Notes under the pieces: generated by a model
Database searches by the model: none
Told to the model about the DNA's origin: nothing
Seen by the model: only the letters and a program-made list of their open reading frames with translations
Shown here: positions 7,551 through 27,725 of the stretch, in pieces
Position numbering within the stretch: the first letter of the stretch is position 1
How the letters are laid out: each line of letters begins with the position of its first letter
NCBI GenBank assembly: GCA_043825215.1
Contig: JBDRSD010000039.1
Span: 14,302 to 78,301 of the forward strand
Direction: 5' to 3'
Source of the DNA: Nanobdellota archaeon
Lineage (GTDB): Archaea > Nanobdellota > Nanobdellia > Woesearchaeales > JAHJEM01
Length of the DNA stretch: 64,000 bases
Position numbers and translations under genes: made by a program

Positions 7551-7559
7551 TAGTCCTCA

Positions 7560-7625
7560 GTTTCGTATTTACTATGAATACGCCTATTTATAAAGGTTAT
7601 CTTTTAAGACGAGGGTTTCGTATTT
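7560..7625 (+). promoter_or_regulatory. Two direct copies of GTTTCGTATTT (7560..7570 and 7615..7625) bracketing the TATA box
   Basis: Exact 11-bp direct repeat spaced 55 bp apart. The same core TTCGTAT recurs at other promoters in the window. Confidence 0.5.
7587..7594 (-). promoter_or_regulatory. TATA box (TTTATAAA) about 37-44 bp upstream of the recombinase start codon
   Basis: AT-rich palindromic TATA element in the 133-bp gap 7551..7683. A TTTCGTATTT motif copy lies on each side of it. Confidence 0.45.
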
Positions 7626-7683
7626 GTATCAATTACGTAATAATTTCAATATTTCAACTACGTCCAGTGACATCACGAAAGGA

Positions 7684-9264
7684 TCAGCTCTGCACAAGAC
7701 TCACGACGACAAAACCGGAGCAGTTGCCCTTCTGCGGCTTTGGCACCCCCATCTTCCAATACACATCCCTCGTCGGAGAAAAGGTATCATTCTTCGGCTC
7801 AAGGTTGAAGGAATCAAGCTGCACAGCGGTTGCTGTCAAAGAGGTCATCAGGGAATACAGAAGTCCCCCACTCAAGGAATACCGCTCATAGCCAATAGAA
7901 ATGTTTCCCTCATCGCAAGCCATGGAGAGCCCGTCACCTTCACTTGCCCCATATCCGAACAATGCCACATCCATCTCACCATTTCCCACGTTCTCAATCG
8001 TTATGGCAGAATCTGCTGTCGAGTTCTCTCCAGGATTCAACACGCCATAATCAATAATAAGAGGCGTTATGTTCATCCCGAAGATAGTGCTCACATTCAC
8101 GACTGAATGATTGAAACCAGTCGTCCCGTTCATGTCCACAGCTGTCGCATTGCACGCCCACTCACCAGGAACAGCATAATACCAGACAGAAAAGCCACAG
8201 GTATAATTCCTATACCCACCTCCCTCATAGATTGAATCACAGCTCGCATTCGAAAGGTGAAGAGAACTCTCATCAGGAGCACCATTAGACGAAGAAGAAT
8301 GATACAGGCTTGCCTGCACATTGACTAGATCACCTAAACCGTCCAGGTCAGTCACACTCGCATTGCACTCGACCTGCACAATATCACCGAGGGAAGGAAC
8401 AACGACCGGCAGGCTAGTCACTGAAAGGACCTCTGGCTCCCGATTGGCATCAATTGCCACATAGTTCCTGCCCGCGTCAGACCAGATATCATTGCTATCT
8501 GTACAATTCACCAACCAAAAATACTCCTTGTTCTCCAGCGTCACATTGAACGTATTCAGACGATCTTTGTCAGGATAGCTCTGGGAACTGTTGAAAGAAT
8601 CATTCAAGTACAAATCACAAGACACAATCGTCGAATTGTCCGAGACAGTATAATTGAAAAGGACAGCGCTTGACAATTCCCAGACAGAATTGTTCTGAGG
8701 AGAAACTGCGGAAACTAATGGAATCTCATCATCAAGACCTACCACTACACGTACCTCGTACACATGCATCACCGCACCATCAGGAACAGAATCATTAAGA
8801 CCAGCAATGATGATCTTCAGTTTTTCCATGATCTCACTCCACACCCACACACCATTTCCGTGCTCTGTGAGATTTGACAAGGTAAGATTCTGCCTGACGA
8901 CATTCTCTGCAGAAAACAGCCTCAGATCATACTGCGTTGTGCCATTATCATCAGAATACCTGATCGCCCAGCGATCATCAGTGATGCCTGACACCTCCAG
9001 ATCAATAACCAAATTGACGACATACAATGGCTCCGCATCCGGATGGGAAGAGATGTTGAAATTAAAAAAAGTGAGATTTCCATCGCTCAGGTTGATATGG
9101 GCAAAGGTAGAATAATCCTCGTCGAATGCATTCGCCTGGTCACTTGAATTGATTGTGGCATCAAACCCCCGGGGATGAGAAGGAAGCTGGCTTCCTGACA
9201 CAAGACCCAAAGACAGGAGAAAGAGTGCAAGAAAGATATGAACATTCTTCTGGCCCATCTTCAC
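7684..9264 (-). CDS. Secreted glycoprotein-like protein, 526 aa. Its C-terminus shares a YWK...VP.P..G.C.G.VV motif with the 312-aa and 303-aa proteins.
   Basis: Signal peptide MKMGQKNVHIFLALFLLSLGLVSGS. Very many NxS/T sequons. C-terminus DVYWKMGVPKPQKGNCSGFVVV. It lies 4 nt downstream of the preceding gene. Confidence 0.7.
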   Translation of the reverse strand: MKMGQKNVHIFLALFLLSLGLVSGSQLPSHPRGFDATINSSDQANAFDEDYSTFAHINLSDGNLTFFNFNISSHPDAEPLYVVNLVIDLEVSGITDDRWAIRYSDDNGTTQYDLRLFSAENVVRQNLTLSNLTEHGNGVWVWSEIMEKLKIIIAGLNDSVPDGAVMHVYEVRVVVGLDDEIPLVSAVSPQNNSVWELSSAVLFNYTVSDNSTIVSCDLYLNDSFNSSQSYPDKDRLNTFNVTLENKEYFWLVNCTDSNDIWSDAGRNYVAIDANREPEVLSVTSLPVVVPSLGDIVQVECNASVTDLDGLGDLVNVQASLYHSSSSNGAPDESSLHLSNASCDSIYEGGGYRNYTCGFSVWYYAVPGEWACNATAVDMNGTTGFNHSVVNVSTIFGMNITPLIIDYGVLNPGENSTADSAITIENVGNGEMDVALFGYGASEGDGLSMACDEGNISIGYERYSLSGGLLYSLMTSLTATAVQLDSFNLEPKNDTFSPTRDVYWKMGVPKPQKGNCSGFVVVSLVQS

Positions 9265-9268
9265 CCCC

Positions 9269-10483
9269 CTATGATATGATTCGTTTTGCCTTCTTTTTGC
9301 GCTTCCTTTTGATCAACACAACCAGCAGCATGATCGCCACAAGGACAATTATGATCGGCACAAATGACCACGAGGAGATCCGCCTGCGCTCGACCTCTTT
9401 CTCCAATCCAACATCTGCAGGAAAGGCTTCCAGAAGAGACGCCTTCTCAAACGTCAGCTTGTTGTTGTACAAAACCCTTCCGAAAATCTCGTATTTGCCT
9501 TCCTTCTCGGGCGTAAAAAAGCTCTCGAAATCGACAATCTCTCCAGGAAGGACGTCCAGGTTGTCTGTCTCAATAAGCTTCACCACCACATTTGCCGATC
9601 GTATCGTCCCTTTGAATTTTGCTGAGACAGCCCGCTCCCCGCTGTTCTTGAAAATCGCTTTTATGGGGGTGATCTGGCCGACACGTCCGTAATATTGGTT
9701 CTCTATGCGCATCAAATCCCCCCTGTCTGAAATACCACCTTTTTCAAGAACCTCGAATGTGATCTCTTCTGCAGGCTGGGCGCAGAGCGGCACAGTCACA
9801 TTGACAAAATACTGGCCCTTGGAAAGTTCAAGGCCGGGAATCGCCTGAAATGTATCCACGCTTATCGTCGGAAGGACTTCCTCCCCAGTCACGGTCACGC
9901 TCGCAACCTTGACTGCATGCTCCCTGTCCCAAAAATCAAGCTTTGCCTCAGGAGTGATCCGTACATTGCCCTGGTTCAAGACAGAGAAACGAAATTCAAC
10001 AGGCTTTCCTTCCTCAGTATCAGGTATCCTAAAACCGCCAGGAATGCATGAGATCAATTCCTGCCCTGTTATGCCTATCTCTGTCTGGATAGCAAAAGAT
10101 ACGATAATCGTACTCCCAATGCGCCCCTTGATGTCTGTCGAGAGAACACCTGTCCTCACCCGTATCAATCCCGTATACATGCCATTTGCCACGTCAGCGG
10201 GCGGGCTTACGACGAAAGTCACCCATTGCCCGTGATCCCTGCTTATATAGAGCTCGCCCTCTTCCTTAACAGAAATCCAGGGCTTAATTTCTCCTTCTGC
10301 TTCATAGACCAAGGAAAGATTTTCTACTGAATCAGTCGAAACATACACCTGCTCCTCTGCATATCCATTTTTCAACACGTCATCAATATGGATGAGAGCT
10401 TTACTCACACCAATCGCCGTACCTTCAACATGGGGAAATGCGAGAAGCAAGAATAAAACTGTGCAAAGCAATAATCGTTTCAT
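9269..10483 (-). CDS. Surface protein, 404 aa, with an N-terminal signal peptide and a C-terminal TM helix plus polybasic tail
   Basis: N-terminus MKRLLLCTVLFLLLAFPHVEG. C-terminus WSFVPIIIVLVAIMLLVVLIKRKRKKKAKRIIS. A TATA box at 10508..10515 lies about 24 bp upstream of the ATG, which implies a leaderless transcript. Confidence 0.75.
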   Translation of the reverse strand: MKRLLLCTVLFLLLAFPHVEGTAIGVSKALIHIDDVLKNGYAEEQVYVSTDSVENLSLVYEAEGEIKPWISVKEEGELYISRDHGQWVTFVVSPPADVANGMYTGLIRVRTGVLSTDIKGRIGSTIIVSFAIQTEIGITGQELISCIPGGFRIPDTEEGKPVEFRFSVLNQGNVRITPEAKLDFWDREHAVKVASVTVTGEEVLPTISVDTFQAIPGLELSKGQYFVNVTVPLCAQPAEEITFEVLEKGGISDRGDLMRIENQYYGRVGQITPIKAIFKNSGERAVSAKFKGTIRSANVVVKLIETDNLDVLPGEIVDFESFFTPEKEGKYEIFGRVLYNNKLTFEKASLLEAFPADVGLEKEVERRRISSWSFVPIIIVLVAIMLLVVLIKRKRKKKAKRIIS

Positions 10484-10507
10484 ACATGAAAAAACAGAAC
10501 AAGCTCA

Positions 10508-10515
10508 TTTATAAA
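10508..10515 (-). promoter_or_regulatory. TATA box TTTATAAA centred about -28 from the ATG of the 404-aa gene (leaderless transcript)
   Basis: The minus strand reads actaaataTTTATAAAtgagcttgttctgttttttcatgtATG. Confidence 0.55.
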
Positions 10516-10553
10516 TATTTAGTTTGAAAGACACAAACATTTTCAAAGAACAC

Positions 10554-10569
10554 AAAAAAAGAAAAATTT
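10554..10569 (-). terminator. Oligo-T terminator (AAATTTTTCTTTTTTT on the minus strand) 2 nt after the stop of the 312-aa gene
   Basis: A T-rich tract follows the TAG stop at 10572 directly. This is the archaeal-style intergenic layout of terminator followed by the next promoter. Confidence 0.5.
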
Positions 10570-10571
10570 CC

Positions 10572-11510
10572 CTAACCAGACCAGCCAGCAAGTTGCGCCT
10601 CATACACAACAGTCCCATTGCAGACGCCGAAAGGATTTGGCGGGACGTAGAGCTTCCAATAGGTCGTGTTGAGCGAGAGCTCATCAGTCTGCTGCTTGAA
10701 GATCGTCACATTGCCTATCGTCCTTGGCCCGCTAGTCAGATTGACCATAGTCACCCAAGAGACATTTCCTACCGGAGTCCAGCGCTCATTACCAATGGTA
10801 ATATTTGTCCCATACGGACAGATAAAAGAGAGTTCCTGACCTGTCAGGTTGCTTGTGCCGCCGTAACCATACACACTGAGATTGATCGGCTGGTTGCCCC
10901 AGTTTGTCACATTCACCTGCTGGACGTTCGACGTGTCGAAGACAGACAGGTTGCCGTAATCAATGAGGTCTGTGACATTCATCGCAAACAGGGGATAGAT
11001 GAGGCTTGAATTGGTGCCGTTGATAGGGTAATTGAGTGTGTTGTTCACCTGGACAGAGCAGTTCCAGCTCCCATTGTAGGCATGATAGGTCACATTATTA
11101 AAGGCGCAGATGTACCTGAACGTGTAGGAGTTGACCGTCTGGTTATACTCACATGAATAATTTTGATATCGTGTATTGTTGTCTTGGGCACCGAACGGGG
11201 AGACATTGTCCCTGTGGAATGTCGCATTGACCTTGTCAATATCGGCAAGACCGTTGTAGTCAATGATCGTCACATTGCATTCGACCAGGCGGACAGTTCC
11301 CTCGGAGAGGTTGATTGGCGCACCTTGATTGATGATGATACTAGTTATAATAGGGAGTGACTGGGTGATGTTCACCCTTGTCGTGACATTGGTCCGGTCA
11401 TATGCTATGATGTATCCTATCTGGATGAGGAGAACCAATATGAGACCTGCGAGGAGAAAATAAAGAATCCTTGGCTTCTTGTTGATGTTTTTGTGCGCCA
11501 CGTCGATCAC
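10572..11510 (-). CDS. N-terminally anchored extracellular protein, 312 aa, paralog of the 303-aa protein at 21133..22044. GTG start.
   Basis: N-terminal TM FLLAGLILVLLIQIGYIIAY. Shared blocks with the 303-aa protein: VNITQS..INQGAPINLSEGT..CNVTIIDYNGLADIDKVNATFHRDN...YWKLYVPPNPFGVCNGTVV. Confidence 0.7.
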   Translation of the reverse strand: MIDVAHKNINKKPRILYFLLAGLILVLLIQIGYIIAYDRTNVTTRVNITQSLPIITSIIINQGAPINLSEGTVRLVECNVTIIDYNGLADIDKVNATFHRDNVSPFGAQDNNTRYQNYSCEYNQTVNSYTFRYICAFNNVTYHAYNGSWNCSVQVNNTLNYPINGTNSSLIYPLFAMNVTDLIDYGNLSVFDTSNVQQVNVTNWGNQPINLSVYGYGGTSNLTGQELSFICPYGTNITIGNERWTPVGNVSWVTMVNLTSGPRTIGNVTIFKQQTDELSLNTTYWKLYVPPNPFGVCNGTVVYEAQLAGWSG

Positions 11511-11644
11511 GTAATTGTGCTGCTAATATACGAATTAGTATATCTATATCATAACTTGTATATAAATCTTTCGTTCTTATGTACCCCACCTCTTCCTGCT
11601 CTCCACATTCATCCCACCAATAGCAACCCAGATACATCTTGAAA

Positions 11645-14548
11645 TCATGCGAAGCCCTTCAGGAAATCCCTGGAAAAGGATTCTGCCCTTCGTGCATAGG
11701 ACGACAAGGCGCTTTCCCGCGCATCCTCTTCTGCAAGCGACGACCTGAGTTCCTGAAGCCGTGTGAGCGCTGACCTGAGCCCGACGACATTTTTCCTGTC
11801 GATACACGCATGGACGTCTTTGACCGCTTGCATAAGGGCTAGCTTATCATACACCTCGCACATACCATGATGGAGCGCTACATTCTCCTGGTCAGCATAC
11901 TGATACAGGTCGAGCAAGGTCAGGTAATACGAATAGGCCTGGCCGACATCAAGCGCATCTGCACGCTCATTTGCATGATGCATGAGACGCATCAACTGCA
12001 CAGAGCCCACGTCAGGATGTGATCTCGTGCCAGGGACTGCTGCAGCATTCACCATTCCAGAAGATGCAGCAGCTGCTGAATCATTGGCTGGATTGACCAT
12101 GGCAGGCTGGCGCTCCTGAGTCCGTCGCTCTTGAACCTCATTTCCGCACATACTGCACCATGGTTCCGCAACATGACCAGATGCAGCTCTTCTCTCTGCA
12201 GAATGAAAATGGCGCTTTTCTTCCGTCGGGGAGACTGTATGGCCTGCTTCTGCCCCGGGTACCTCTCTTCCCTTCCTCTGCACGAGCTGTTGCACAGAAG
12301 CCTCCCCGCTCTGGCCAGCCTCATAACTTTCTTCTGCTTTCAAGAAAAAGAAGTAATAGACAGCAAGACCCAGGACGATGATCCCCCCTATGATAATCAT
12401 GATGAAATTCATTCCAGTGAACCATGAGCCTTTGCTCTCCGTCATCGTGAGGCCGTTTCCGCTCGCAAGGCCTGTGATCGAATCGTTCCTGCCTGACGAC
12501 GCATTCCTCCCTGCCAATACTGGCTCGGACAGGACGACAGTTCTCACCGTCTTCATGCTGTTGATGTCCTTCTGGCCAGGGATCGCGTATGAGAAGCGAA
12601 ACCCGTCAGCCCGGCTTGGATTCCATCTCAGGACTGGATCATCCTTGACCACAATAGGAGGTACGCTGCTCTTGACAAGGGACGCTTTCTGGGCGACTGC
12701 CTTTGGGATAATCTCGACGACAATGCCTGCGCTGCCTTCGGAGCGGATGCTCTTTTCCACCAGCGCGAAGGACGATTCCTTCTCAAAAGAGAGCAAGCGC
12801 ACCAGGAGTATCTTCACATTGACATCTGTCTTATCATTTATCGCAAGCATCTCCTGCTCAAACGATGCCCGGTCAGGCAGGTCACGGGAGAAGACATCGT
12901 CGATGGCCTGAAAGATCGTCACATCCTCAAGGGACTGCACAAGCTCGGATTTCTGGTCGATGTCAATCTCTTTCACCACATCCTTGAGTGCCCGCTCCAT
13001 GCGCACATCGATCAGGTCAAGCCTGGACGAGAGCTCCTGCTCAGAAAGTTGCGAGGACAGATAGCCCTCAAGCTCCAGGCGCATTCCCTGGATTGCCTGC
13101 GCTGCTGCTTTAGCTTCTCCCAGCAGGTCAAAAAAGGAGATGACAGACACCGTATCCGCATCAGTTGCTCCTGACAGGTCAGAGATGACCTGCTCGAGCT
13201 CAAGAGACTTCCTGTCAAGAAGAGTGATCTGCTTTTTCACGCTTCCTGAAAGGGATGCCGGAAGCGTGACCTGCTCAGATGCCTGCAGGCCGTAATCTGC
13301 AGTCAAGAAGCGCTCGGTAGAGAGATCCCCCTCATTTCCTGCCTTGTCCACTGCAGAGATCCGGTAATGGTACGTCGTCCCATCTTCGACATCACCATCA
13401 AGATAGCTTGTCGCAGTCGTTCTCGTCAGGTAGTTTATCTGGTCCACTGACGAGAGCTCAGACCGAAAGATCCTGAAGTAATCAACCTCCTCTCCCTCAT
13501 AATACCATTCCAGCTCCAATCCCTTCCTATCGTTCGTAACCTCAAGGGAAAGAGGTGCCGGCGGCTTTCTCGTATCGACGATGAACAGCTTTCCACCCGT
13601 TATCTCTGTCCCAGAAAGTCCGGAGAGATCAATCCCTGAAAAGGAGAACGTGCCGATGCGGTCAGCAGCATCTTCAGGGATGATAAGATAGCCATGATAG
13701 GCGAGACCGCTTCCCACCAATGACACTATCCGAAAATTCCCGTCATCATTATAATTATACTTGAGGATGGGGGCTTCCACAAGTTCTTCTGACAAAGACA
13801 CCCCGACCTCATAGGTGCCTGCCTTAAGCACGTCACCCCCGTCGATAATCACAGCAGCCGAAGGCCTCAGGTTGACATCAAATGAGACTTCGAAGCCGTC
13901 CTGCTGCACATTCCCAGCGCCATCCTTGCAACGCACATAATACCTGTACTGCGCCTGGGGCAGCTTTCCCAATAGCTCCTTATGGACGAATCTGCCAGTC
14001 GTGTCAAACGTCTCCTGGAGCAAGTCATAGGGCACATTGGTGATGTCATACCTGCATGCCGCCTGCTCATTTGTCGTCACGTTGAGCTCGACCAGTCCAG
14101 AGGTCAATGTCCCTGATGGGTATGCCTTTGTGATCAGTGGAGGGGTCCTGTCGACGGTAAATGTGAAATTCTCAGTCATTCCTGTGTTGTTCAGAAGATC
14201 CCTGCAGCCGACAAAAAAGGTATATTGCCCTTCCGGAAGGTTGAGAAGATCCTGATGGTCTGTGCCCTGGCCTGCGAAGAGGAACTCCAGCTCGTCAAAC
14301 AAGCCATAGCCTGTGTCATACCTGCATGATGCAGGCTCGTCAGTCGTGACCTCAAGCGCCACAGGATAGTCTGAGATTGCTCCTTTGGGGGATTTTGCGA
14401 GTATGATTGGCGGCAGCGTATCTGGGTCTGCCCGTGCTATTCCGGGAACCAGGGCAAGGATGAGGAAGATGCACAGTGCTGCACGCACAGAGGGGAATCT
14501 TTTGCCTGTCATTCCCCATTTCCCGCTTCCAGCCTTCCAGTCTTCCAT
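11645..14548 (-). CDS. Single-pass membrane protein, 967 aa. The extracellular part has repeated CRYD-containing domains and an FN3 domain. The cytoplasmic tail is large.
   Basis: Signal peptide ALCIFLILALVPGIARA. FN3 signature PPAPLSLEVTN...LEWYYEGEEVDYFRIFR...TTYHYRISAVDKAGNEG. TM FIMIIIGGIIVLGLAVYYFFFL. The start abuts the stop of the RHH gene at 14548/14549. Confidence 0.75.
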   Translation of the reverse strand: MEDWKAGSGKWGMTGKRFPSVRAALCIFLILALVPGIARADPDTLPPIILAKSPKGAISDYPVALEVTTDEPASCRYDTGYGLFDELEFLFAGQGTDHQDLLNLPEGQYTFFVGCRDLLNNTGMTENFTFTVDRTPPLITKAYPSGTLTSGLVELNVTTNEQAACRYDITNVPYDLLQETFDTTGRFVHKELLGKLPQAQYRYYVRCKDGAGNVQQDGFEVSFDVNLRPSAAVIIDGGDVLKAGTYEVGVSLSEELVEAPILKYNYNDDGNFRIVSLVGSGLAYHGYLIIPEDAADRIGTFSFSGIDLSGLSGTEITGGKLFIVDTRKPPAPLSLEVTNDRKGLELEWYYEGEEVDYFRIFRSELSSVDQINYLTRTTATSYLDGDVEDGTTYHYRISAVDKAGNEGDLSTERFLTADYGLQASEQVTLPASLSGSVKKQITLLDRKSLELEQVISDLSGATDADTVSVISFFDLLGEAKAAAQAIQGMRLELEGYLSSQLSEQELSSRLDLIDVRMERALKDVVKEIDIDQKSELVQSLEDVTIFQAIDDVFSRDLPDRASFEQEMLAINDKTDVNVKILLVRLLSFEKESSFALVEKSIRSEGSAGIVVEIIPKAVAQKASLVKSSVPPIVVKDDPVLRWNPSRADGFRFSYAIPGQKDINSMKTVRTVVLSEPVLAGRNASSGRNDSITGLASGNGLTMTESKGSWFTGMNFIMIIIGGIIVLGLAVYYFFFLKAEESYEAGQSGEASVQQLVQRKGREVPGAEAGHTVSPTEEKRHFHSAERRAASGHVAEPWCSMCGNEVQERRTQERQPAMVNPANDSAAAASSGMVNAAAVPGTRSHPDVGSVQLMRLMHHANERADALDVGQAYSYYLTLLDLYQYADQENVALHHGMCEVYDKLALMQAVKDVHACIDRKNVVGLRSALTRLQELRSSLAEEDARESALSSYARRAESFSRDFLKGFA

Positions 14549-14785
14549 CTACAGCTTCCTCTTCAGTTTTTCGAGAAGGTTCCTGTCCTTTTCGAGCGCA
14601 GCCTCTATCGCATCCTCGAAATAGCTGTTCAGTGTCGTGTCCTTCAGAACCGCGATAAGCTTTGCCTTGGTATGGACATCGTCTTTCAGTGCAATGTTGA
14701 CTCGTTTCACGTATACCCCGACTGTGCAATTGCCGCGCCGAAACGGCAAATACAAGTAAGTGATCATATCTCTGATAGAACTCAT
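14549..14785 (-). CDS. Small ribbon-helix-helix (CopG/Arc-like) DNA-binding protein, 78 aa
   Basis: VYVKRVNIALKDDVHTKAKLIAVLKDTTLNSYFEDAIEAAL fits a beta-strand followed by helix-turn-helix. It is translationally coupled to the 967-aa gene. Confidence 0.55.
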   Translation of the reverse strand: MSSIRDMITYLYLPFRRGNCTVGVYVKRVNIALKDDVHTKAKLIAVLKDTTLNSYFEDAIEAALEKDRNLLEKLKRKL

Positions 14786-14786
14786 A

Positions 14787-14804
14787 TAAATAGTTTACTA
14801 TTTA
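14787..14804 (-). promoter_or_regulatory. Perfect 8-bp inverted repeat TAAATAGT-TT-ACTATTTA immediately upstream of the RHH start codon (candidate operator)
   Basis: Read directly from the sequence. A second AT palindrome AAATATAAAAATATTT (TATA-like) lies at about 14821..14836. Confidence 0.5.
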
Positions 14805-14925
14805 TACAATTACATCATAAAAATATTTTTATATTTCTGCACAGATATGATATCTGCCCGGTAAACAGGGCTTCCAACCACATCATTACGCTTGCGCACC
14901 TCCCAACATCTCTTGCCGCGACCCA

Positions 14926-17055
14926 TCAGCCATCTCCTCCAGTCTTTCCCTGAGTCTTTCCTTCACCCCTCCCCTCAACCTCCCCTTCAGCAGCACCCGC
15001 CGCATGATCCTGCCCTTTAGGCCCGGCCCCGTCCTTTGCGCTTCCAGAAGATGCCTTTTCTTTCGCAGGGCTTTGCTCTGCATTTCCTGTTGACAAGTCT
15101 TTAGAAGATGCCTGACCAGATGGAGAGACAGGCTGCTCAGATTGCTCCTCTGCCGTCTTAGATGAAACTCCTGAAGCTGCCACCCCCTCTTTCCCATCTT
15201 CATCTGCATCAAGCCTGTCCAATGCCTCATACAGCTCCTGCTTCTGCTCGTATATGGTGTAGAGCTGCTTCAGGCGATCCCCTATCGCCTGTATCCTGGG
15301 ATGATTGACACTCTGCTGCACATATTCCTGGCTTTCCAAAAGCGCGCGCAGCTCGCTCAAGAGCAGGCGCTCCTCTGCAAAAGGCGTGCTGCTCTTCTTA
15401 TACTTGTCAAAAAGGGCAAGCAGGGAAGAATAGACCTTCTTCAGGGAATGCGTCCCCCTGAACAATTCCGCATACTCCGGACTTTTTTGCACCTGCACGA
15501 TCTCATCCGCGATCTCATGCTCAAGCTCAAGCAGGTGAGCATTCTGCAGGCTGATCAAATCCGTGATCTGCTTATAGTGGGTGTCTGCAAGCAAGCGCAG
15601 CCCATCCAGCCTTTTCTTCTCATCATACTCGTATCGCTTCATGATGAAATGGACTACCACGGGAATCAGAACAAGGGCGAGGATGAACACCCAAAGGTAG
15701 AGCAGGTTGAGCTGATAGCAGATGCCGATGAAATAATAATACAGGAACGTCACAAGAGCAACAAGGAGTATTGACATGATGAACCTGAATGTCCTTCGCC
15801 TGATCCTGCTAATCTTGAGAACGCGCTTGAGGCGGCTCTTTGCTGGCTCATCCTGCATCCGCATCTTAATCCGCCTGACCTTCAATTCAGATGAGACCAC
15901 CCTTCCCACAAGCACCAAGAACAGCAATGATGCTATGAAGATAAAATAGGGATTGAACGGATCGACCATGCGCACACACACCAGGCGCGGCAATTCAAAA
16001 ATCGTCTTGCAAGCCTGGCACGGGCCGCCGCAATCAACACCTGATTCCCCCTGGTTCCTCATCCCATCAGCACAGGACGGGCATGCAGGACAAGGCCCGC
16101 CGCAATCAACAGCAAGCTCGCCATAATTCTGAATCCTATCAAAGCAATGCGCACAGGGAGGGCAGGGGCCGCCGCAATCAACTCCTGTTTCCAGCCCGTT
16201 CATGATGCCATCAAAGCAGGTGGGAACATAGAAGCACTCCTGGGAAAGAAGCGGCTTGTTCCTGTCCGTGTTGCAATCAGTCATCTCAGTGCAATTTCGC
16301 GTTTGCACTCCTGACGACTGGCAATCACCCCACTCGGTGCAGAGCCACTTCTCCTCGCATGTGCTCTTGGTGCTTGCCGGCTGGTTTGCAGCTGCTCCTG
16401 CACCAGCACCCCCGCCAGCACCGCTACCGCCTCCAGCCCCAGCCTCACCCTGACCTTCATCGCCGCCCCCTCCAGGAGTCTCATTGGCAGGAGGCGCTCC
16501 GCAGTCGTCAGGACAGGTCTGCTGTGACTCCAGACTATCACAGAATCCGTCACCGCAGACCAGTTTTGGCACGACTATATCCACTCTCTTGAAGGTTCCC
16601 GGCTCATACGTCGGATCCCCTATCAGGCTTGTCTCCAGGCTATCAAAGGTGAAATTCAAGACATTACCCACGCCTGCACCCTCGTCAGTAGCATTGGTCT
16701 CCTCCCAATCGCCCATGCAGGACAACACGCCATAATACCCGCTGTTGACTGTCGTGAACCTGCCGCACTGCTGCGCACCAGGGTCATAGACACGGATCAC
16801 GAGACCAGTAGACGCATTGTCATTATATACCTTCACGCTTCCATAAAACTCAGTAGGAAGGGGAGGAATGGCGCTGCCCATGCCTGCGAAAAGCAGCACG
16901 AACAGCAATATAGCAGCATGTAAACAATAGCTCTGCATCCAGGAACGCATCTGGGGAATAGGCGACAAACTACCTTTATGGACTCGCACTTTCGCATTCC
17001 TATTACGCACGTCCCACGCTTTCCACGCTTCTTTCTGCACTTCTTTTCTTTTCAT
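14926..17055 (-). CDS. Membrane protein, 709 aa. The extracellular domain carries a CGDGxC...CPxDC motif, a Gly/Ala-rich linker and three Cys-rich repeats. Two TM helices and a cytoplasmic coiled-coil plus acidic low-complexity tail follow.
   Basis: CGDGFCDSLESQQTCPDDCG. Three repeats: NGLETGVDCGGPCPPC, NYGELAVDCGGPCPACPSC, NQGESGVDCGGPCQAC. TMs FIFIASLLFLVLVG and IMSILLVALVTFLYYYFIGICY. The start could instead be the internal Met at about 16950. Confidence 0.7.
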   Translation of the reverse strand: MKRKEVQKEAWKAWDVRNRNAKVRVHKGSLSPIPQMRSWMQSYCLHAAILLFVLLFAGMGSAIPPLPTEFYGSVKVYNDNASTGLVIRVYDPGAQQCGRFTTVNSGYYGVLSCMGDWEETNATDEGAGVGNVLNFTFDSLETSLIGDPTYEPGTFKRVDIVVPKLVCGDGFCDSLESQQTCPDDCGAPPANETPGGGGDEGQGEAGAGGGSGAGGGAGAGAAANQPASTKSTCEEKWLCTEWGDCQSSGVQTRNCTEMTDCNTDRNKPLLSQECFYVPTCFDGIMNGLETGVDCGGPCPPCAHCFDRIQNYGELAVDCGGPCPACPSCADGMRNQGESGVDCGGPCQACKTIFELPRLVCVRMVDPFNPYFIFIASLLFLVLVGRVVSSELKVRRIKMRMQDEPAKSRLKRVLKISRIRRRTFRFIMSILLVALVTFLYYYFIGICYQLNLLYLWVFILALVLIPVVVHFIMKRYEYDEKKRLDGLRLLADTHYKQITDLISLQNAHLLELEHEIADEIVQVQKSPEYAELFRGTHSLKKVYSSLLALFDKYKKSSTPFAEERLLLSELRALLESQEYVQQSVNHPRIQAIGDRLKQLYTIYEQKQELYEALDRLDADEDGKEGVAASGVSSKTAEEQSEQPVSPSGQASSKDLSTGNAEQSPAKEKASSGSAKDGAGPKGQDHAAGAAEGEVEGRGEGKTQGKTGGDG

Positions 17056-17085
17056 CTTTTCAGGATTGCAATTTTTCTCCAGACG

Positions 17086-17790
17086 CTATGCTACGAAATT
17101 GATCGTCCCATCAGCAGTCATGTTGATCCAATATGCCTGGAAGGGCACGGTATAGTTCAATGAATTATTATCAAGATCAGGAATGAAGAGTACATAGTCC
17201 GCAATCGTCGTATTATATCCCACCACGTGGGTATATGTCCCATAGACCGAGGACAAGGACTCGTTGATGTCCTTGACGACAGCAAGCGGATAGCTGATCA
17301 GGTTATAGCCGCTATCCACAGGCACATCCTCCTGTGACTTGAGGATTCCCAAATAGGAAAAATGGCCTTCAGCGCTCATGCCGATGACATATCCCTTCAG
17401 GCGCGACACATACGTGAGGTCCTGGACTGTCCAGTTCGGAAGTGTCGGATTATAGCTTTTCCAATAGTCTGTTGCCACACCAGGGCTGTATTCAAAGAGA
17501 TAGGAAAACCCGGACACGTTCTGGAAGAGATTAGCTGGATTCTCATACATCCCGATGCAGTATGCTGAAAAGAGGCTCTGGCCAACAGGAATGTCTGTTG
17601 CACATTCAACAATCGTTCCGTTTCTCACATTCACTGTGGCGACTGCCCATCCTGTCGCCCTGTCCAGAAGAGTCTGGTCTGTCCCGATGAAGCTGACGAA
17701 GAACAAGCAGAGGACAAGCAGGAAAACAAATAGTACGAAGAATCCTTTCCTGCTCCATAGTCCGCCTTGTCTCTCGTCAGCCATCTTCAT
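17086..17790 (-). CDS. N-anchored membrane protein with an extracellular domain, 234 aa (hypothetical)
   Basis: TM FFVLFVFLLVLCLFFVSFIG followed by a sequon-rich domain. The start overlaps the AbrB-like gene stop by 4 nt. Confidence 0.65.
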   Translation of the reverse strand: MKMADERQGGLWSRKGFFVLFVFLLVLCLFFVSFIGTDQTLLDRATGWAVATVNVRNGTIVECATDIPVGQSLFSAYCIGMYENPANLFQNVSGFSYLFEYSPGVATDYWKSYNPTLPNWTVQDLTYVSRLKGYVIGMSAEGHFSYLGILKSQEDVPVDSGYNLISYPLAVVKDINESLSSVYGTYTHVVGYNTTIADYVLFIPDLDNNSLNYTVPFQAYWINMTADGTINFVA

Positions 17791-18059
17791 ACCATGCGCC
17801 TACGATCCTTTTGTGCTTCGTCTTTCTCGATTATGACATACCATCTCTTTTTCTCATGGTCATACTGGAATGCCACCACATACTTCATTCCCGGCTCCAT
17901 GTCGAAGAGAAGAGGACGGGGAATCGTTGTCTCAAATGAGCTTCCCCTGGAATAGAGTTTCCTTCTGATTTCCATAACCATCCTCATTTTTTTATAGGGA
18001 TTTATATATTTACTTATTTTCATACTTATATTTCTCCTTATATATGTGGGCAATATCAC
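17787..18059 (-). CDS. AbrB/MazE/SpoVT-like swapped-hairpin DNA-binding protein, 90 aa
   Basis: RRKLYSRGSSFETTIPRPLL resembles the consensus KrGnSl.vtIPkel. It is the first gene of a coupled operon. Confidence 0.5.
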   Translation of the reverse strand: MILPTYIRRNISMKISKYINPYKKMRMVMEIRRKLYSRGSSFETTIPRPLLFDMEPGMKYVVAFQYDHEKKRWYVIIEKDEAQKDRRRMV

Positions 18060-18113
18060 AAAGCAGTATACAAAAACGTATACAAATCGAAATATTTATA
18101 TATTAGTTATGCT

Positions 18114-18542
18114 TTGTATGCCTGTATGGTTATTTTATTCGATCAGTACAACCTGCCAGAGAACATTTACGAGATCATATTCGCAACAAAACAGCAAGTC
18201 ATAGTCGGCAAATTGCTCGTGGAAGAGATGAAACTGAAAGACGGCGAGATGGGAAAGACAGAGATGAGCATGTTCGCAACAGCACTTCACGAAGGAAAAC
18301 TCGTCGAAGAGGTCCAAGACTCCCCCCTCCGCCCAAAGAAGAAAGTCTCCCTCTCCTACAACAAGAGGCAATTCTATGACAGGATCCTCACCCCTATGAA
18401 GACCATGGGCATCATCGACTACGACCTGTACAAGAAGACGTACAAGCTGTCAGACAAGTTCAACAAGAACATGATGAGGATCGGGCTCATGTGGCTGCAG
18501 GAACTCAGAAAGCCACCGCAACGGCTCAACCTCAAAAGATAA
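18114..18542 (+). CDS. Hypothetical basic protein. It is the only plus-strand gene, and the true start is probably the second ATG at 18126.
   Basis: A TTTATATA TATA box at 18094..18101 would place a leaderless start near 18126. A T8 tract follows downstream. Confidence 0.45.
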   Translation: MYACMVILFDQYNLPENIYEIIFATKQQVIVGKLLVEEMKLKDGEMGKTEMSMFATALHEGKLVEEVQDSPLRPKKKVSLSYNKRQFYDRILTPMKTMGIIDYDLYKKTYKLSDKFNKNMMRIGLMWLQELRKPPQRLNLKR

Positions 18543-18606
18543 TCACATTCACAAAAAGAGGGCTCCCAAGAGATTTCTATTCTCTCAACCACCCTCCCCA
18601 CCACCC

Positions 18607-18625
18607 GGGAGCCACTCTTTTTTTT
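18607..18625 (+). terminator. T8 tract (18618..18625) after a weak hairpin, downstream of the plus-strand gene
   Basis: gggagccactcTTTTTTTTc. The 7-bp stem ggctccc/gggagcc encloses a large loop. The oligo-T tract is the main archaeal termination signal. Confidence 0.4.
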
Positions 18626-18777
18626 CTGGGATCAGCATCCGGCTGACGGCTAACTGAGAAATCAGAACTCAGCATCATAAAAAGGGAACAGAACGCAGCT
18701 ATACAACAAGGGATCGAAACGTAGCCAACTGCTGACGGGTGCTGCGAATTCTCGCAGGATTATCTGTAAAAGTCTCT

Positions 18778-19170
18778 TCAGGTACGCATCTTGATAACGC
18801 CCTGACATTTTTTGCTACCGCAGTTACAATTCAAATGTAGTCCAGGAACCTTTTCTCTCACATAATCTGCAGTAATTTCTTCACCTTTTCTAATCATTCT
18901 CACTGCAACATCACATCCTTCTTTTACGTAAGTATTGGAATCACAAGAGTGATTTACATATTTTCCAGGCGGCTTGAAAAGAACAAATACATTATCCTTA
19001 AGGAAGGAAACATACTTTTTTTGACTCGGGAGTAATTTATTAACTTCTTCCTTTGTCAATCTATCTGAACATGTAGACCAATCAATGACCACCTCTCCCT
19101 TCTTAAAATCCCTCCCGGCAAATACTCCTTGCCCATGGATTCTGGATTTTTTAACAACAATATCTGACAT
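18778..19170 (-). CDS. SET-domain protein-lysine methyltransferase (small archaeal-type SET, 130 aa)
   Basis: SRIHGQGVFAGRDFKKGEVV, YVNHSCDSNT (NHSC motif), EEITADY and post-SET CNCGSKKCQG. Confidence 0.85.
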   Translation of the reverse strand: MSDIVVKKSRIHGQGVFAGRDFKKGEVVIDWSTCSDRLTKEEVNKLLPSQKKYVSFLKDNVFVLFKPPGKYVNHSCDSNTYVKEGCDVAVRMIRKGEEITADYVREKVPGLHLNCNCGSKKCQGVIKMRT

Positions 19171-19204
19171 TTATCTTTCACACCCAGTGATACCCGACAC
19201 GGCC

Positions 19205-20989
19205 CTAATGACCACTCTGCTGGCTTCTATGGACGTCTTTTAAAGGATGCCCGCATTTCACACAATGCGTCGCTTTCTTCCTGTTCTTCGCCTTGCAGTT
19301 CGGGCAGCGCCTCTTTCTCAAGACAATGAATGCTATGAGGAGGATGACAACCAGAATGATAAGCCCATACGTCACATAGTCAAGACCTTTCTCCCTGAAC
19401 GCGAAGCTCTTGACCTTGACCTTGACAAGCGAGATCTCCCGAGCACCATAAAACGCCTGCACAAGGACCTGCTCATTATCAAGAACATCCTCTACTGCAA
19501 GCTCGATTGCCACAGGAATCCATTTCTTTTCCCCTTTCTTCAAAAACGTCACCCCGTCAGACGCGACAGTGACTGCCTCACCATTGACGAAAAGATCGAC
19601 AAGCTCCACCTGCGTATACACGTCCACAACCCCGGTGTTCTCAATCTGCACCTCAAACTGCTTCTTCTGCCGGTTATAGACAAGATCCATTATCTCGATG
19701 TCCGTGTCATCAAGGACAGTCACCGACTCCACCCGCAGGGTCTTTTCCACAGTAAACTCCAAAGATTTCTTGCCCTCGCCGAAAATCGTCAAGACCTTGG
19801 CCTCGAGCTCGTCATTCTGGAACCGCAGGGGAGACCCGTCTGAAGACTCTGTATAGATGACAGTCTTGTATTCTCCCCCGTCGATGAAAAGAGGCTCCGG
19901 ATCTCCGATGATAATGGTGTCAGCGCCATCGGTGATAGAAATGGCCGACTTGAAATATGTGGCAAGATCAACAAGATTATGGAAGGTGACTTCAAGAGCG
20001 CTTGTCCCTTTGTTGTAGGCAACAGCATAGATGTCCAGGTTCAGGTTATAGCTTGGCATCGGAAACCGGTCAAGATCCTCGACAGGCGCGATCGATCCTG
20101 AAGGCGTCCTCGACCCTTGGGCAAACTTGACAAAGACACTGATGCCAAGCTGCCTCCTGATGATCGTCGCAGAGCCGATCAGGTCGTTTCCAATAAGCAC
20201 ACCCACATCAATGCCGCTTTTCTTAATATAGTCCCTGATCTGGTCCGGGACATTGGTCCTTCCGATGAAAATGACAGGCTCAGCGCCTGTGAGAAGGCTT
20301 GCCTCGATAAACTCGCCATTGGTCAGGATCGCCTGCTTCTTATTGACAATCTCCTGGAATTTCTTCACGATAGCGATATTGTTGTCAAAGCGGTCTCCCT
20401 CATTGATCACCTCTGGATTGTACCTGGCAAGTTCATCCTTCACGCTCCTGTCCAGCTGGCCATAGAGAAGCACCTTATCAACATCAATCCCTCCGAGAAA
20501 ATCCATCACTTGACCGATTGTCCTGTCATCAGCAAAGAGCACGTACGACCTTGAAACGACTGCATACGGGCCGACAGAAATCGCATTATACCCATAAGAC
20601 GGATCAATGATGATGAAATTCCTGATCCCTGTCAGGCGGTCTGCAAGCTCAAGATTGACATTCTGGTAGATGACCTCTGTCACGTTCTCATATCCCCTTC
20701 CCTCGAAAATCGAGCTATAGCCTGCGACAAAGGCATTCCTTCTTGAGGAGATGACCTCGACCTCGATGTCTTTACTGATGGAATAGAGAAGGATTGTGGA
20801 ATGGCGAGCGCTCGTGATGAAATTCACTGATTTTCCCTCGAGGCTTCCAAAGAGCATGATGGAATACACATCCTTCCAGTCCGCAGAATTCGAAATAAGC
20901 TTCTCTGGTTCACTTGAAACCGAAGGAAGAGTAAATACAACAAGGCACAAAATGGCCATTGATAAAAATACTGACCAACCCCTTACCAT
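19205..20989 (-). CDS. Single-pass surface protein, 594 aa, with a large extracellular domain, a C-terminal TM helix and a cytoplasmic CPxC...CxxC zinc-ribbon tail
   Basis: Signal peptide FLSMAILCLVVFTLPSVSS. C-terminus GLIILVVILLIAFIVLRKRRCPNCKAKNRKKATHCVKCGHPL. A TATA box at 21013..21020 lies about 24 bp upstream. Confidence 0.75.
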   Translation of the reverse strand: MVRGWSVFLSMAILCLVVFTLPSVSSEPEKLISNSADWKDVYSIMLFGSLEGKSVNFITSARHSTILLYSISKDIEVEVISSRRNAFVAGYSSIFEGRGYENVTEVIYQNVNLELADRLTGIRNFIIIDPSYGYNAISVGPYAVVSRSYVLFADDRTIGQVMDFLGGIDVDKVLLYGQLDRSVKDELARYNPEVINEGDRFDNNIAIVKKFQEIVNKKQAILTNGEFIEASLLTGAEPVIFIGRTNVPDQIRDYIKKSGIDVGVLIGNDLIGSATIIRRQLGISVFVKFAQGSRTPSGSIAPVEDLDRFPMPSYNLNLDIYAVAYNKGTSALEVTFHNLVDLATYFKSAISITDGADTIIIGDPEPLFIDGGEYKTVIYTESSDGSPLRFQNDELEAKVLTIFGEGKKSLEFTVEKTLRVESVTVLDDTDIEIMDLVYNRQKKQFEVQIENTGVVDVYTQVELVDLFVNGEAVTVASDGVTFLKKGEKKWIPVAIELAVEDVLDNEQVLVQAFYGAREISLVKVKVKSFAFREKGLDYVTYGLIILVVILLIAFIVLRKRRCPNCKAKNRKKATHCVKCGHPLKDVHRSQQSGH

Positions 20990-21012
20990 GGCCTAAAAAA
21001 GGAATCAGGGCG

Positions 21013-21020
21013 TATATAAA
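21013..21020 (-). promoter_or_regulatory. TATA box (TTTATATA on the minus strand) about 24 bp upstream of the ATG of the 594-aa gene (leaderless)
   Basis: gggcgtatataaatcttg, with the adjacent CGTAT core. Confidence 0.5.
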
Positions 21021-21132
21021 TCTTGCGGTCAATACTTGCTCAATAACCCAGACGGATACTGACCAAAGCTTCATACGTGTCCCGCTCCACCAATGCCAAG
21101 TATTCTTCAGTTTCCATGAGTTTCACCTCTGT

Positions 21133-22044
21133 TTATGGATTTCCGCCCAATTGCCCTTCAATCACGATCGTGCCATTGCAGACACCGAAGGGATTCGGCG
21201 GGATGTATGTCTTCACATACGTTGTATTGATAGACAATTCATCAGTCATCTGCTTAGGCACAGTTATATTCTGAACAACCCGAGGACCACTCGTCATCGC
21301 AACCATGGTATCATAGCTGATGTTGCCAAGAGATGTCCACCGCACATTGCCAATAGAGATGTTTGTCCCTATCGGACAGACAAAGGCAAGGCCACCGCCT
21401 GATGCATTGCTGTTTCCCCCATAGCCATAGATGGTCAGGTTCAAGGGCTGGTTGCCCCAGTTCGTCACGTTGATCTCGCTGACATCTGACGTGTCAAAGA
21501 CCGAGAGGTTGCCAAAATCGACTGCGTCTGTCACGTTGACTGCGTAGAGGGGATAGATCGTGCTGAAATTGGTCCCATTCTGGGTGTAGTTCAGCGTGCT
21601 GTTGACAAAGACCGTGCAGTTCCAACTCCCGTTGTACGCGTAATAGGTCACGTTGAAATCGCAGTAGTACGCAAAATTGTTCGCATCGATCGAATAATTG
21701 TAGCTGCAATTGGTGTTCTTGTAGACCGTGTTGTTTTCAGCATCAGCAAAAACGCTCGTGTTCGACCTGTGGAATGTCGCGTTGACCTTGTCGATGTCGC
21801 TCAGGCCGGAATAGTCAGTGATTGTCACATTGCAGACCACATTCAAGTCCGTTCCCTCAGATAGGTTGATCGGCCCTCCCTGGTTGATAACGATATTTGC
21901 GACTGTCGCCGCAGACTGGGTGATGTTCACCTGGGTCGAGACTGTCGTCTGGTCATAGCTTACGGCAACGCCAACAAGCCCTATCATCAGAAGAGATGTT
22001 GCTGCTATCAACAGTGCCAGTATCTTATTGTTTGCCATTTTCAT
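21133..22044 (-). CDS. N-anchored extracellular protein, 303 aa, paralog of 10572..11510
   Basis: MKMANNKILALLIAATSLLMIGLVGVAV. Blocks VNITQS..INQGGPINLSEGT..CNVTITDYSGLSDIDKVNATFHRSN...YVKTYIPPNPFGVCNGTIV. The start abuts the stop of the next gene at 22044/22045. Confidence 0.75.
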   Translation of the reverse strand: MKMANNKILALLIAATSLLMIGLVGVAVSYDQTTVSTQVNITQSAATVANIVINQGGPINLSEGTDLNVVCNVTITDYSGLSDIDKVNATFHRSNTSVFADAENNTVYKNTNCSYNYSIDANNFAYYCDFNVTYYAYNGSWNCTVFVNSTLNYTQNGTNFSTIYPLYAVNVTDAVDFGNLSVFDTSDVSEINVTNWGNQPLNLTIYGYGGNSNASGGGLAFVCPIGTNISIGNVRWTSLGNISYDTMVAMTSGPRVVQNITVPKQMTDELSINTTYVKTYIPPNPFGVCNGTIVIEGQLGGNP

Positions 22045-22779: not shown

Positions 22780-22798
22780 CTTTTCAATAGTGTTCGTC

Positions 22799-24144: not shown

Positions 24145-24473
24145 GCATGTACATTCGCGTGTTTCAGATTAGCGTTTCCGCCTATCACATACACACGAAC
24201 CCTCCCGACACTTTTTCACGATTGGCGCACGCGATGTTAGCCGGCACCGCATGCGCCGCTAGTATACACTTTTGTATGTTACTCTATCCCATGACAGTAC
24301 TTCTATTTAAATGTTTCGTTTTCTACTGTACCACTGTGTTAATGTACCACCACACTATTAATTGCACAATCTTACATTATTTTTGTAATTTTATAATTTA
24401 GTAACTAATTAAATTATGAGATTGAAGGCCTCAAGCGCCATAACTCAAGAATTCGTCGCAAATCATATGGCAC

Positions 24474-25701: not shown

Positions 25702-25705
25702 GTAA

Positions 25706-26761: not shown

Positions 26762-26819
26762 CGCGTTGTTGGTTAAAGGACAGACCCGGGCAATTGCCCA
26801 GAATCTGCTGTATTAATGT

Positions 26820-27704: not shown

Positions 27705-27725
27705 TATACTAAATTAATATATTAA

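Follow-up and report, generated by a model that had tools for sequence, protein, structure and literature searches.

The window, the whole 64,000-nucleotide stretch of DNA analysed here, carries four genes whose products end in copies of one protein module (Table 1). The coordinates, strand and sequences quoted for three of them in the preliminary description were correct, all three lying on the minus strand. Paralog A consists of an N-terminal hydrophobic helix (residues 15–34), the short conserved segment TTRVNITQSLP and two Ig-like domains (residues 54–171 and 177–307). Paralog B, which begins where the upstream 244-aa gene stops, is homologous to it over the whole length, as originally proposed (63% identity over 296 residues, E 1e-133), and the quoted block CNVTI(I/T)DY(N/S)GL(A/S)DIDKVNATFHR is present in the alignment of the two. 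The 526-aa protein comprises a signal peptide, an N-terminal passenger of ~250 residues with a weak Big_7 match (residues 182–234), and the module (residues ~274–521; nt 7702..8445), which ends 5 residues before the C-terminus. The deposited gene for this protein begins two codons later. The fourth copy had been missed when the module was assigned to three proteins, all of which do carry it; it ends the 2,420-aa surface protein. The gene for that protein runs past the left edge of the window, which cuts the module (from ~nt 591); the full gene occupies 4564..11826 on sequence L005, with the module at the C-terminal end of its product (...GDVYWRLEIPPEPFGLCNGSVVVSAEVDA).

Table 1. Features of the window, with the basis or context of each assignment.
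Feature	Coordinates	Strand	Basis
Module-only paralog A, 312 aa	10572..11510	-	ORF; 100% identical to NCBI ABIJ21_03775
C-terminal block of paralog A, residues 280–307	10590..10673	-	AF2 secondary structure
Module-only paralog B, 303 aa	21133..22044	-	63% identity to A; family HMM E 3.9e-114
526-aa protein	7684..9264	-	BLASTP to paralogs; family HMM E 1.3e-60
2,420-aa surface protein (DUF2341 + Big domains), first 2,346 codons in window	1..7038	-	hmmsearch E 2.1e-35, HMM positions 35–236
404-aa type-I membrane protein: signal peptide, beta-rich ectodomain, C-terminal TM helix, basic tail	9269..10483	-	ORF, synteny
967-aa membrane protein: signal peptide, Big/fn3 ectodomain, TM at ~707, cytoplasmic tail	11645..14548	-	Directly upstream of paralog A
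Conserved locus core	14926..20989	-	ORFs, family scans, synteny
Two ~245-aa secreted YYF glycoproteins, C-termini YYFYAEIK and YYFWVELG	22045..23545	-	Directly upstream of paralog B
C-terminal domain of 4,510-aa giant, divergent YYF-type	29549..30100	-	hhalign; boundary nt 30100 approximate
C-terminal domain of 6,933-aa giant, divergent YYF-type	43078..43629	-	Profile-profile, probability 91.6%, E 8e-7

The 526-aa protein had been considered unrelated to the paralogs apart from a short shared C-terminal peptide. The C-terminal likeness is real and far above chance, but it extends well past ~20 residues: residues 291–521 align with residues ~62–302 of both paralogs at 30–31% identity (E 7e-26 and 8e-21). 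The protein is instead a homolog, with the two-domain module present in full. The alignments and an AF2 model of paralog A (pLDDT 87.5, pTM 0.72) define the shared unit as a ~265-residue tandem Ig-like module, of which the peptide is the end; in the two paralogs nothing but this module makes up the ectodomain. In the model the N-terminal helix is followed by two complete 8-stranded beta-sandwich domains, each with the general Ig-like architecture (two sheets, 7–9 strands, likeness to known Ig-like domains). The block is placed in the second domain, where it forms strand F (LNTTYWKLY), the FG loop (VPPNPFGVCNG, which holds the invariant Cys297 and an NGT sequon) and strand G (TVVYEAQL). It is the best-conserved stretch of the module, with a mean column conservation of 0.71 in the short forms and 0.57 in the long forms; past strand G come tails of 3–8 polar residues without conservation, and across the family the final 3–15 residues show none either.

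The cysteines of the module follow a consistent pattern across 228 family sequences. C120, C135, C231 and C297 are almost never lost, and every sequence that covers positions 231 and 297 keeps both of these cysteines. Loss of C78 is always joined by loss of C151 (5 of 5 cases), including in the 2,420-aa protein, which is without equivalents of either; all six are conserved in the 526-aa protein. The six cysteines thus suggest three structural disulfides, probably C78–C151, C120–C135 and C231–C297. Given the co-retention of C231 and C297, Cys297, which lies in an invariant G-x-C-x-G core near the module end (G295, C297, G299), is most likely one half of an intradomain structural disulfide and probably not an attachment site. 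The common interaction or attachment function first suggested for the cysteine-containing block would fit the strict C-terminal position, the varied passengers and the conserved locus described below, but the cysteine is an improbable point of attachment. N-x-S/T sequons are enriched about fourfold in the module-bearing proteins (26 against 6.0 expected from composition in paralog A, 25 against 7.2 in paralog B) and not in the neighbouring membrane proteins (2 against 1.4 in the 404-aa protein), a density that points to N-glycosylation of the module. No conserved Lys or Asp pair stands out in the family alignment as a candidate for isopeptide bonds, and assignment to the isopeptide domains was rejected.

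A profile search for the module gave 2,544 cluster representatives, labelled almost entirely Woesearchaeota or Nanoarchaeota. In 63 of the 63 listed members longer than 400 aa (414–4,139 aa) the module ends no more than 8 residues from the C-terminus, and it occupies no N-terminal or internal position among the listed members. The passengers ahead of it are mutually unrelated (Beta_helix/NosD, MG2, Big_7, Big_13, DUF2341). On balance, we favour the view that in Woesearchaeota-type DPANN archaea the module is a lineage-specific C-terminal domain common to surface glycoproteins exported by Sec.

Comparison with described sequence families placed the module in none of them. When all locus proteins and 30 family members were scanned with Pfam and NCBIfam, only sub-threshold matches appeared, and no Pfam family recurred among the 30. 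The first half of domain 2 matched choice_anch_D (NF012200) at 17.8 bits (E 0.0037), below the cut-off of 45. The domain 1 motif C-N-x-T-x-x-D-x-N-G-x-x-D-I-x-x-V-N-A-T-F resembles what we take to be the D-x-D-G...V motif of Big_7 (PF17957), a likeness that we treat as a lead only. Membership of Big_7 or choice-of-anchor D was rejected, all matches being below curated cut-offs; the pattern of six cysteines and the fixed pairing of two domains also set the module apart from both. Sequence searches of the PDB with the single protein and with profiles gave nothing significant. Foldseek matches were to generic Ig-like adhesin domains, and the nearest fold matches were adhesin and matrix Ig domains, including a Mobiluncus adhesin, RbmA and MSCRAMM N2-N3. 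A literature search found no description of a tandem-Ig module family of this kind.

The module-only genes sit in a conserved super-locus. A genome scan with the trimmed alignment as query identified 51 genome loci, and in nearly all of them the module-only gene lies directly downstream of a YYF-YYF pair or of the 967-aa gene; about 40 loci show the order YYF-YYF-module-only, and in 8 other genomes the 967-aa gene is again followed by the module-only gene. The 709-aa protein of the locus core is polytopic, with three Cys-rich repeats, and the 234-aa protein is N-anchored; the core also encodes a small ~54-aa protein (90-aa ORF) and a 594-aa protein in which a cytoplasmic zinc ribbon accompanies a weak, sub-threshold ArlF/G-like match. 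A SET-domain gene interrupts this core at 18778..19170. The ~400-aa type-I membrane protein is conserved in the neighbourhood of the long module-bearing genes. Just outside the window the 2,420-aa gene is followed by one for a 392-aa paralog of the 404-aa protein (32% identity, E 1e-43), and in other genomes long module-bearing genes adjoining module-only genes (1,071 aa in L003, 1,562 aa in L004) each have such a protein alongside. Neither a type IV ATPase nor a platform gene turned up when the conserved cluster was scanned with Pfam and NCBIfam. Cassette switching near the integrase-like gene was considered as well, and a search for DNA repeats and inverted repeats gave paralogy-derived direct repeats only.

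The ~300-aa paralogs had been described as N-anchored, which is plausible from their N-terminal sequences. Small residues (A/S/G) follow the hydrophobic stretch, so that cleavage by signal peptidase I would fit too; the stretch is longer in the short forms than in the long forms (median uncharged run 18 vs 13.5 residues). A class III signal peptide, as in type IV pilins or archaellins, would require a [KR]-[GAS] cleavage site ahead of a hydrophobic helix of ~20 aa, and the locus would have to encode an assembly ATPase and a platform protein. This candidate was rejected, since the hydrophobic stretch is preceded by no conserved G/A/S cleavage motif and the conserved cluster has neither an ATPase nor a platform gene.

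The observed part of the explanation that we propose comprises the homology, the fold, the strictly C-terminal placement, the diversity of the passengers and the conserved gene order. Surface location and module-mediated assembly we infer, as we do the disulfides and the glycosylation. We lean towards the module being a shared piece for incorporation or retention rather than a sorting signal. The ~300-aa module-only proteins would be the basic units from which a surface structure is built, kept in place by their own N-terminal helix or by partner membrane proteins of the locus. Long proteins would join this structure through contacts of their own C-terminal copy of the module, and their variable passengers would be displayed outward.

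A variable N-terminal passenger followed by a conserved C-terminal Ig-like module, which also occurs alone in small subunits encoded nearby, is likewise the arrangement of the two-domain tip adhesins (FimH, PapG, CsuE, CfaE) and pilins of chaperone-usher systems. It is possible, if unlikely, that the module-only proteins are pilin-like subunits of a chaperone-usher-like or thread-like donor-strand fibre, with the long proteins as tip adhesins in the manner of FimH and PapG. All four adhesins are among the Foldseek matches, but at TM 0.25–0.37 the likeness is weak, goes no further than the generic fold and extends to many unrelated proteins with two Ig domains; neither chaperone nor usher homologs were found here, and the organism is a single-membrane archaeon. 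Donor-strand subunits have an incomplete Ig fold without the last strand, plus an N-terminal donor strand, whereas both Ig domains of the module are predicted to be complete, each with its own G strand, in a high-confidence AF2 monomer. The segment that follows the signal helix (V.V.TRVNITN, an alternating pattern) is better conserved in short forms (0.55) than in long forms (0.26), and the co-operonic YYF proteins have a conserved N-terminal stretch of ~40 residues that is unstructured in AF2. Both features would suit donor strands, but the segment of the module proteins is not predicted as a strand, and many long forms align into HMM positions 25–45.

The Sulfolobus acidocaldarius thread filament, with Saci_0406 as its subunit and Saci_0405 as a putative cap (PMC9715654), offers an archaeal comparison for such a fibre. 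Shared features are a Sec/SPase-I type signal, beta-sandwich subunits, heavy N-glycosylation (here predicted) and a small, conserved cluster of genes that lacks a type IV ATPase, with a paralogous partner encoded next door (PMC9715654); the lack of an ATPase or platform gene in the locus favours the fibre to that extent. Unlike the threads, the module has no sequence match to solved structures (the thread subunit included, if it is in that library), its AF2 model does not support a donor-strand architecture, no Lys/Asp isopeptide pair is evident and the taxon is another.

That the module is itself a ligand-binding adhesin or lectin, for host glycans for example, with its C-terminal position incidental, seems improbable. 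The nearest folds are adhesin and matrix Ig domains, and DPANN archaea depend on host contact (PMC11420986; 10.1101/2023.10.27.564410). The module is conserved, however, and it is in the variable passengers that enzyme or binding folds can be recognised. In the short forms a spacer of only ~18 residues lies between the module and the hydrophobic helix, so the module would sit close to the membrane, and its absence from N-terminal and internal positions among the listed members also speaks against this reading.

The CTD of Bacteroidota T9SS cargo is also an Ig-like sandwich that is strictly C-terminal on many unrelated, often very large surface proteins. That CTD is a single domain of ~80–100 aa, cleaved by PorU and required for outer-membrane crossing, whereas the module has two domains and ~265 aa, also exists as a stand-alone conserved protein and occurs in a host without an outer membrane. 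A processed sorting domain of this or the PGF-CTERM/archaeosortase kind, cleaved and replaced by a lipid or glycan anchor, is quite improbable, even though the fold, the position (63 of 63 listed long members) and the G-x-C-x-G core near the end would all fit. The long proteins of this single-membrane archaeon have ordinary N-terminal signal peptides, and the best-conserved members are module-only, which would be a signal without cargo. The motif is followed by no TM helix or basic tail, the last residues are not conserved, and no sortase-like or peptidase-like gene was found in the conserved cluster. The known families were each rejected: the T9SS CTD for want of an NCBIfam match, for its size and domain number and for the DPANN host, and PGF-CTERM/archaeosortase or another tripartite signal because the three proteins have no C-terminal hydrophobic segment and no NCBIfam archaeosortase-target match. 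A chance or compositional match between the 526-aa C-terminus and the paralogs, suggested by nothing but the shortness of the block as first noticed, has practically no standing against composition-adjusted BLASTP E-values over ~240 residues, the family HMM match and six aligned cysteines.

Archaeal S-layer proteins built of Ig-like domains (Haloferax csg, 7ptp; the Nanobdella candidates MJ1_0160/0707) have no sequence homology to the module, and the module-only proteins differ from S-layer glycoproteins in being small (~270 aa mature). We know of no description of the C-terminal reuse rule for archaeal S-layer or S-layer-associated Ig proteins. Extending the incorporation reading, a tentative and somewhat doubtful scenario is that the super-locus (the YYF genes, the module-only gene, the 594-, 234-, 709- and 967-aa membrane proteins, the ~400-aa type-I proteins and the long or giant proteins) encodes an undescribed, ATPase-independent archaeal surface assembly. 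Two small glycoprotein families would form the body of a layer or fibre, and the giants would be plugged in through C-terminal copies of the same two domains. Such an assembly would give host-dependent cells an exchangeable set of surface passengers.

Woesearchaeota are abundant, uncultured and probably host-dependent archaea, and to our knowledge nothing is known experimentally of their envelope. Hundreds of surface proteins that are otherwise unrelated, some of 2,000–4,000 residues, end in the module, which provides a handle for cataloguing the surface proteome of the lineage; it also singles out a group of conserved partner genes. It further suggests a concrete, testable hypothesis of how giant adhesin-like proteins stay on a cell without a wall or outer membrane, in a group for which no S-layer protein has been determined so far (DPANN; 10.1101/2023.10.27.564410). 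If the incorporation reading is wrong, the finding shrinks to an undescribed, ordinary Ig-like domain family.

The YYF domain, from a second small family of the locus, is reused in a similar way, in divergent form, at the C-termini of the 4,510-aa and 6,933-aa proteins. The C-termini of the two giants were not detected by the YYF HMM, and profile-profile comparison was needed; the 4,510-aa C-terminus taken alone gave no significant match to YYF in such a comparison. A homolog search with the C-terminal domain of the giants returned short, probably fragmentary proteins only. Aligned to the YYF-type profile with hhalign, the giant C-terminal domain matched at a probability of 93% (E 3e-7) over 162 columns reaching the C-terminus, a parallel case that supports reuse of a small-protein domain at the C-terminus of large proteins.

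The two ~300-aa proteins (paralogs A and B) align with 63% identity across 296 residues (E 1e-133), and the internal and C-terminal blocks quoted for them in the preliminary description occur as written. The 526-aa protein, described there as unrelated, is in fact a relative. Its residues 291–521 align to residues ~62–302 of both paralogs (30–31% identity, E 7e-26 and 8e-21), six of six module cysteines are in register, and the family HMM matches it at 1.3e-60. Chance is excluded as the source of the C-terminal resemblance. The sharing of a C-terminal module by several proteins of the locus is real, but it extends well beyond the tail, and the observation as literally put is accounted for by ordinary domain homology.

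The family HMM also picked up a fourth copy of the module (a ~265-aa tandem Ig-like unit), in a minus-strand ORF that starts at 7038 and crosses the left edge of the window; this copy was missing from the ORF list because the gene runs off that edge. The gene is full length on L005, a public contig with the same genes, where it encodes a 2,420-aa protein ending ...GDVYWRLEIPPEPFGLCNGSVVVSAEVDA immediately after the module. The HMM did not find the module in either giant ORF (4,510 or 6,933 aa). Every gene of the region is on the minus strand. A Nanoarchaeota MAG matches the window, and the 312-aa protein (paralog A) is identical to ABIJ21_03775.

An AlphaFold2 model of the module-only protein, calculated from a 30-sequence alignment, was confident (pLDDT 87.5, pTM 0.72). 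The predicted layout comprises an N-terminal helix (residues 15–34, paralog A numbering), ~18 residues without regular structure, and two complete eight-stranded β-sandwich domains (54–171 and 177–307). The C-terminal block (YWKxYVPPNPFGVCNGT) falls in domain 2, where it spans predicted strand F (LNTTYWKLY), the FG loop (VPPNPFGVCNG) and strand G (TVVYEAQL). No other part of the module is as well conserved, in short (module-only) and long (passenger-bearing) family members alike, which is why in the 526-aa protein this block alone could be spotted by eye. An alignment of 228 family sequences shows essentially no variation at C120, C135, C231 and C297, and in it loss of C78 is always paired with loss of C151 (5/5 cases, including the 2,420-aa protein). 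From this pattern of co-retention and the domain boundaries we infer three putative disulfides, two within domain 1 (C78-C151, C120-C135) and one within domain 2 (C231-C297); the cysteine of the block (C297) is best explained as structural.

An exhaustive profile search gave 2,544 cluster representatives of the family, 508 of them at E ≤ 1e-30. Of the best 150, about two in three are module-only proteins of ~300 aa, and the rest range from about 360 to 4,139 aa. Among the matches listed, no more than 8 residues follow the module in 63/63 proteins longer than 400 aa, and it is internal or N-terminal in 0/63. The passengers ahead of it are mutually unrelated (right-handed β-helix/NosD, MG2, Big_7, Big_13); that of the 2,420-aa protein includes DUF2341. 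A scan of species-representative genomes yielded 51 loci, nearly all labelled Woesearchaeota, Nanoarchaeota or Nanoarchaeia; the few labelled otherwise (uncultured Methanosarcinales, Saccharibacteria, Euryarchaeota) are suspected binning or naming artefacts. On several contigs two module-only genes lie 10–16 kb apart, as in the window.

The module-only gene is part of a conserved super-locus, where it occupies one of two positions. One, found in about 40 loci and shared by paralog B, is directly downstream of two ~245-aa genes of the YYF family, a second small secreted glycoprotein family of the locus; paralog B abuts its upstream YYF gene. In eight other genomes, and for paralog A, it lies directly downstream of the gene for a 967-aa membrane protein. 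Further members recur (see the table). The window's genome holds two pairs of long and type-I proteins (526 aa with 404 aa; 2,420 aa with 392 aa), the two type-I proteins being paralogs (E 1e-43), and the 1,071-aa and 1,562-aa neighbours at the comparison loci L003 and L004 also have the module at the C-terminus. Pfam and NCBIfam scans of the locus proteins revealed no recognisable secretion ATPase, pilus platform, sortase or peptidase.

Module copies, YYF-type domains and recurrent members of the super-locus (positions in the window)
Feature	Position	Strand	Remark
Module-only paralog A, ~300 aa	10572..11510	-	
Module-only paralog B, ~300 aa	21133..22044	-	
526-aa module-bearing protein	7684..9264	-	
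Divergent YYF-type C-terminal domain of 4,510-aa protein	29549..30100	-	hhalign, joint profile
Divergent YYF-type C-terminal domain of 6,933-aa protein	43078..43629	-	hhalign
Recurrent 594-aa protein			cytoplasmic zinc ribbon
Recurrent ~54-aa protein			
Recurrent 234-aa N-anchored protein			
Recurrent 709-aa polytopic protein			Cys-rich repeats
Recurrent HTH regulators			
Recurrent long module-bearing proteins			each adjoined by a ~400-aa type-I membrane protein

Between the 526-aa and 2,420-aa genes lies a 171-aa tyrosine-recombinase catalytic-domain gene (7035..7550, minus strand; Phage_integrase, E 2.9e-16) that overlaps the start of the 2,420-aa gene by 4 nt. No inverted repeats were found flanking it; another MAG (L011) has a homolog after its long module-bearing gene. 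Three tandem 72-nt repeats (16017..16220) in the gene of the 709-aa polytopic membrane protein (14926..17055, minus strand) encode, within that protein's ectodomain, the Cys-rich unit C-x-D-G-x-x-N-x-x-E-x-G-V-D-C-G-G-P-C-x-x-C. A 130-aa SET-domain protein (18778..19170, minus strand; PF00856, E 5e-12) is encoded inside the surface-protein cluster; at the comparison locus L001 a 138-aa gene occupies this position, on the strand opposite to its neighbours.

The window contains five YYF paralogs, and the family counts at least 314 homologs, all of ~240 aa. Profile comparisons suggest a remote link to the giants. An hhalign match to the YYF profile covers the final ~185 residues of the 6,933-aa protein (probability 91.6%, E 8e-7), the C-termini of the two giants share 32% identity across ~340 residues reaching both ends, and a profile built from both also aligns with YYF in hhalign (probability 93%, E 3e-7). 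The 4,510-aa C-terminus alone gave no significant match to the YYF profile, and ordinary HMM search did not detect the domain in the giants. With the module and these YYF-type C-termini, each of the two small families of the locus thus reappears as the last domain of long or giant proteins. The 6,933-aa ORF (43075..63876, minus strand) extends 4 nt into the start of the 4,510-aa gene. At the GTG codon predicted to start this ORF, neither a signal peptide nor a hydrophobic segment is recognisable.

N-x-S/T sequons occur at ~4 times the expectation from composition in the module-bearing proteins (26 versus 6.0, 25 versus 7.2 and 27 versus 7.3) and are not enriched in neighbouring membrane proteins; the excess would fit an exposed, heavily glycosylated location. 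Among the predicted exported proteins of 7684..29188, sequon density splits sharply, from 3–8 per 100 aa (about 2–4 times expectation) in module-bearing, YYF and giant proteins to values at or near expectation in the 404-, 967-, 709- and 594-aa membrane proteins. The split may separate an outer exposed layer from membrane-proximal parts.

An incorporation or retention unit best fits the module, because it is always last, its stand-alone form is the most conserved, and it is encoded beside its carriers. Going beyond fold and distribution, we infer a scheme in which module-only proteins would be the base units of a surface structure, tethered via the N-terminal helix or, should this be removed by cleavage, by membrane proteins of the locus (the ~400-aa or 967-aa proteins, for instance), and each long protein would join by means of the module copy that it carries. 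The longer hydrophobic stretch of short forms (median 18 uncharged residues versus 13.5 in long forms) leans towards a membrane anchor, although the probable −1 position is occupied by small residues, which are compatible with cleavage too.

A donor-strand fibre, FimH-like or thread-like (PMC9715654), is an attractive alternative in light of the architecture of module-bearing proteins, the N-terminal segment specific to short forms, and the conserved, unstructured N-terminus of YYF proteins; in the AlphaFold2 prediction, however, the fold of the module is complete and supplies its last strand itself. Were the module instead a cleaved sorting domain of the T9SS-CTD kind, its strict C-terminal position would be accounted for, but the stand-alone proteins and the ordinary signal peptides would be left unexplained, no processing enzyme is seen at the locus, and the host has a single membrane. 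Direct ligand binding is possible but fits poorly with a module that is the invariant, membrane-proximal part.

The module is an Ig-like surface domain family, common in kind. Cultured DPANN (Nanobdella) are reported to have glycosylated multi-Ig surface proteins and pectin-lyase-like passengers, and according to the same work no DPANN S-layer protein has been determined so far (10.1101/2023.10.27.564410). A literature search found no description of the six-cysteine tandem unit, of the way thousands of Woesearchaeota proteins use it strictly at the C-terminus, or of the conserved locus that encodes module-only versions. What merits follow-up is this C-terminal rule, together with the locus. 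Outside the window, a large subclass of ~580–600-aa module-bearing proteins (P0128, P0130, P0151-P0155 and others) has a common N-terminal motif behind the signal peptide, PP.P.N[IV].G.[VI]f...G.G..NG[IV]PV, and may represent a widespread fixed passenger type.
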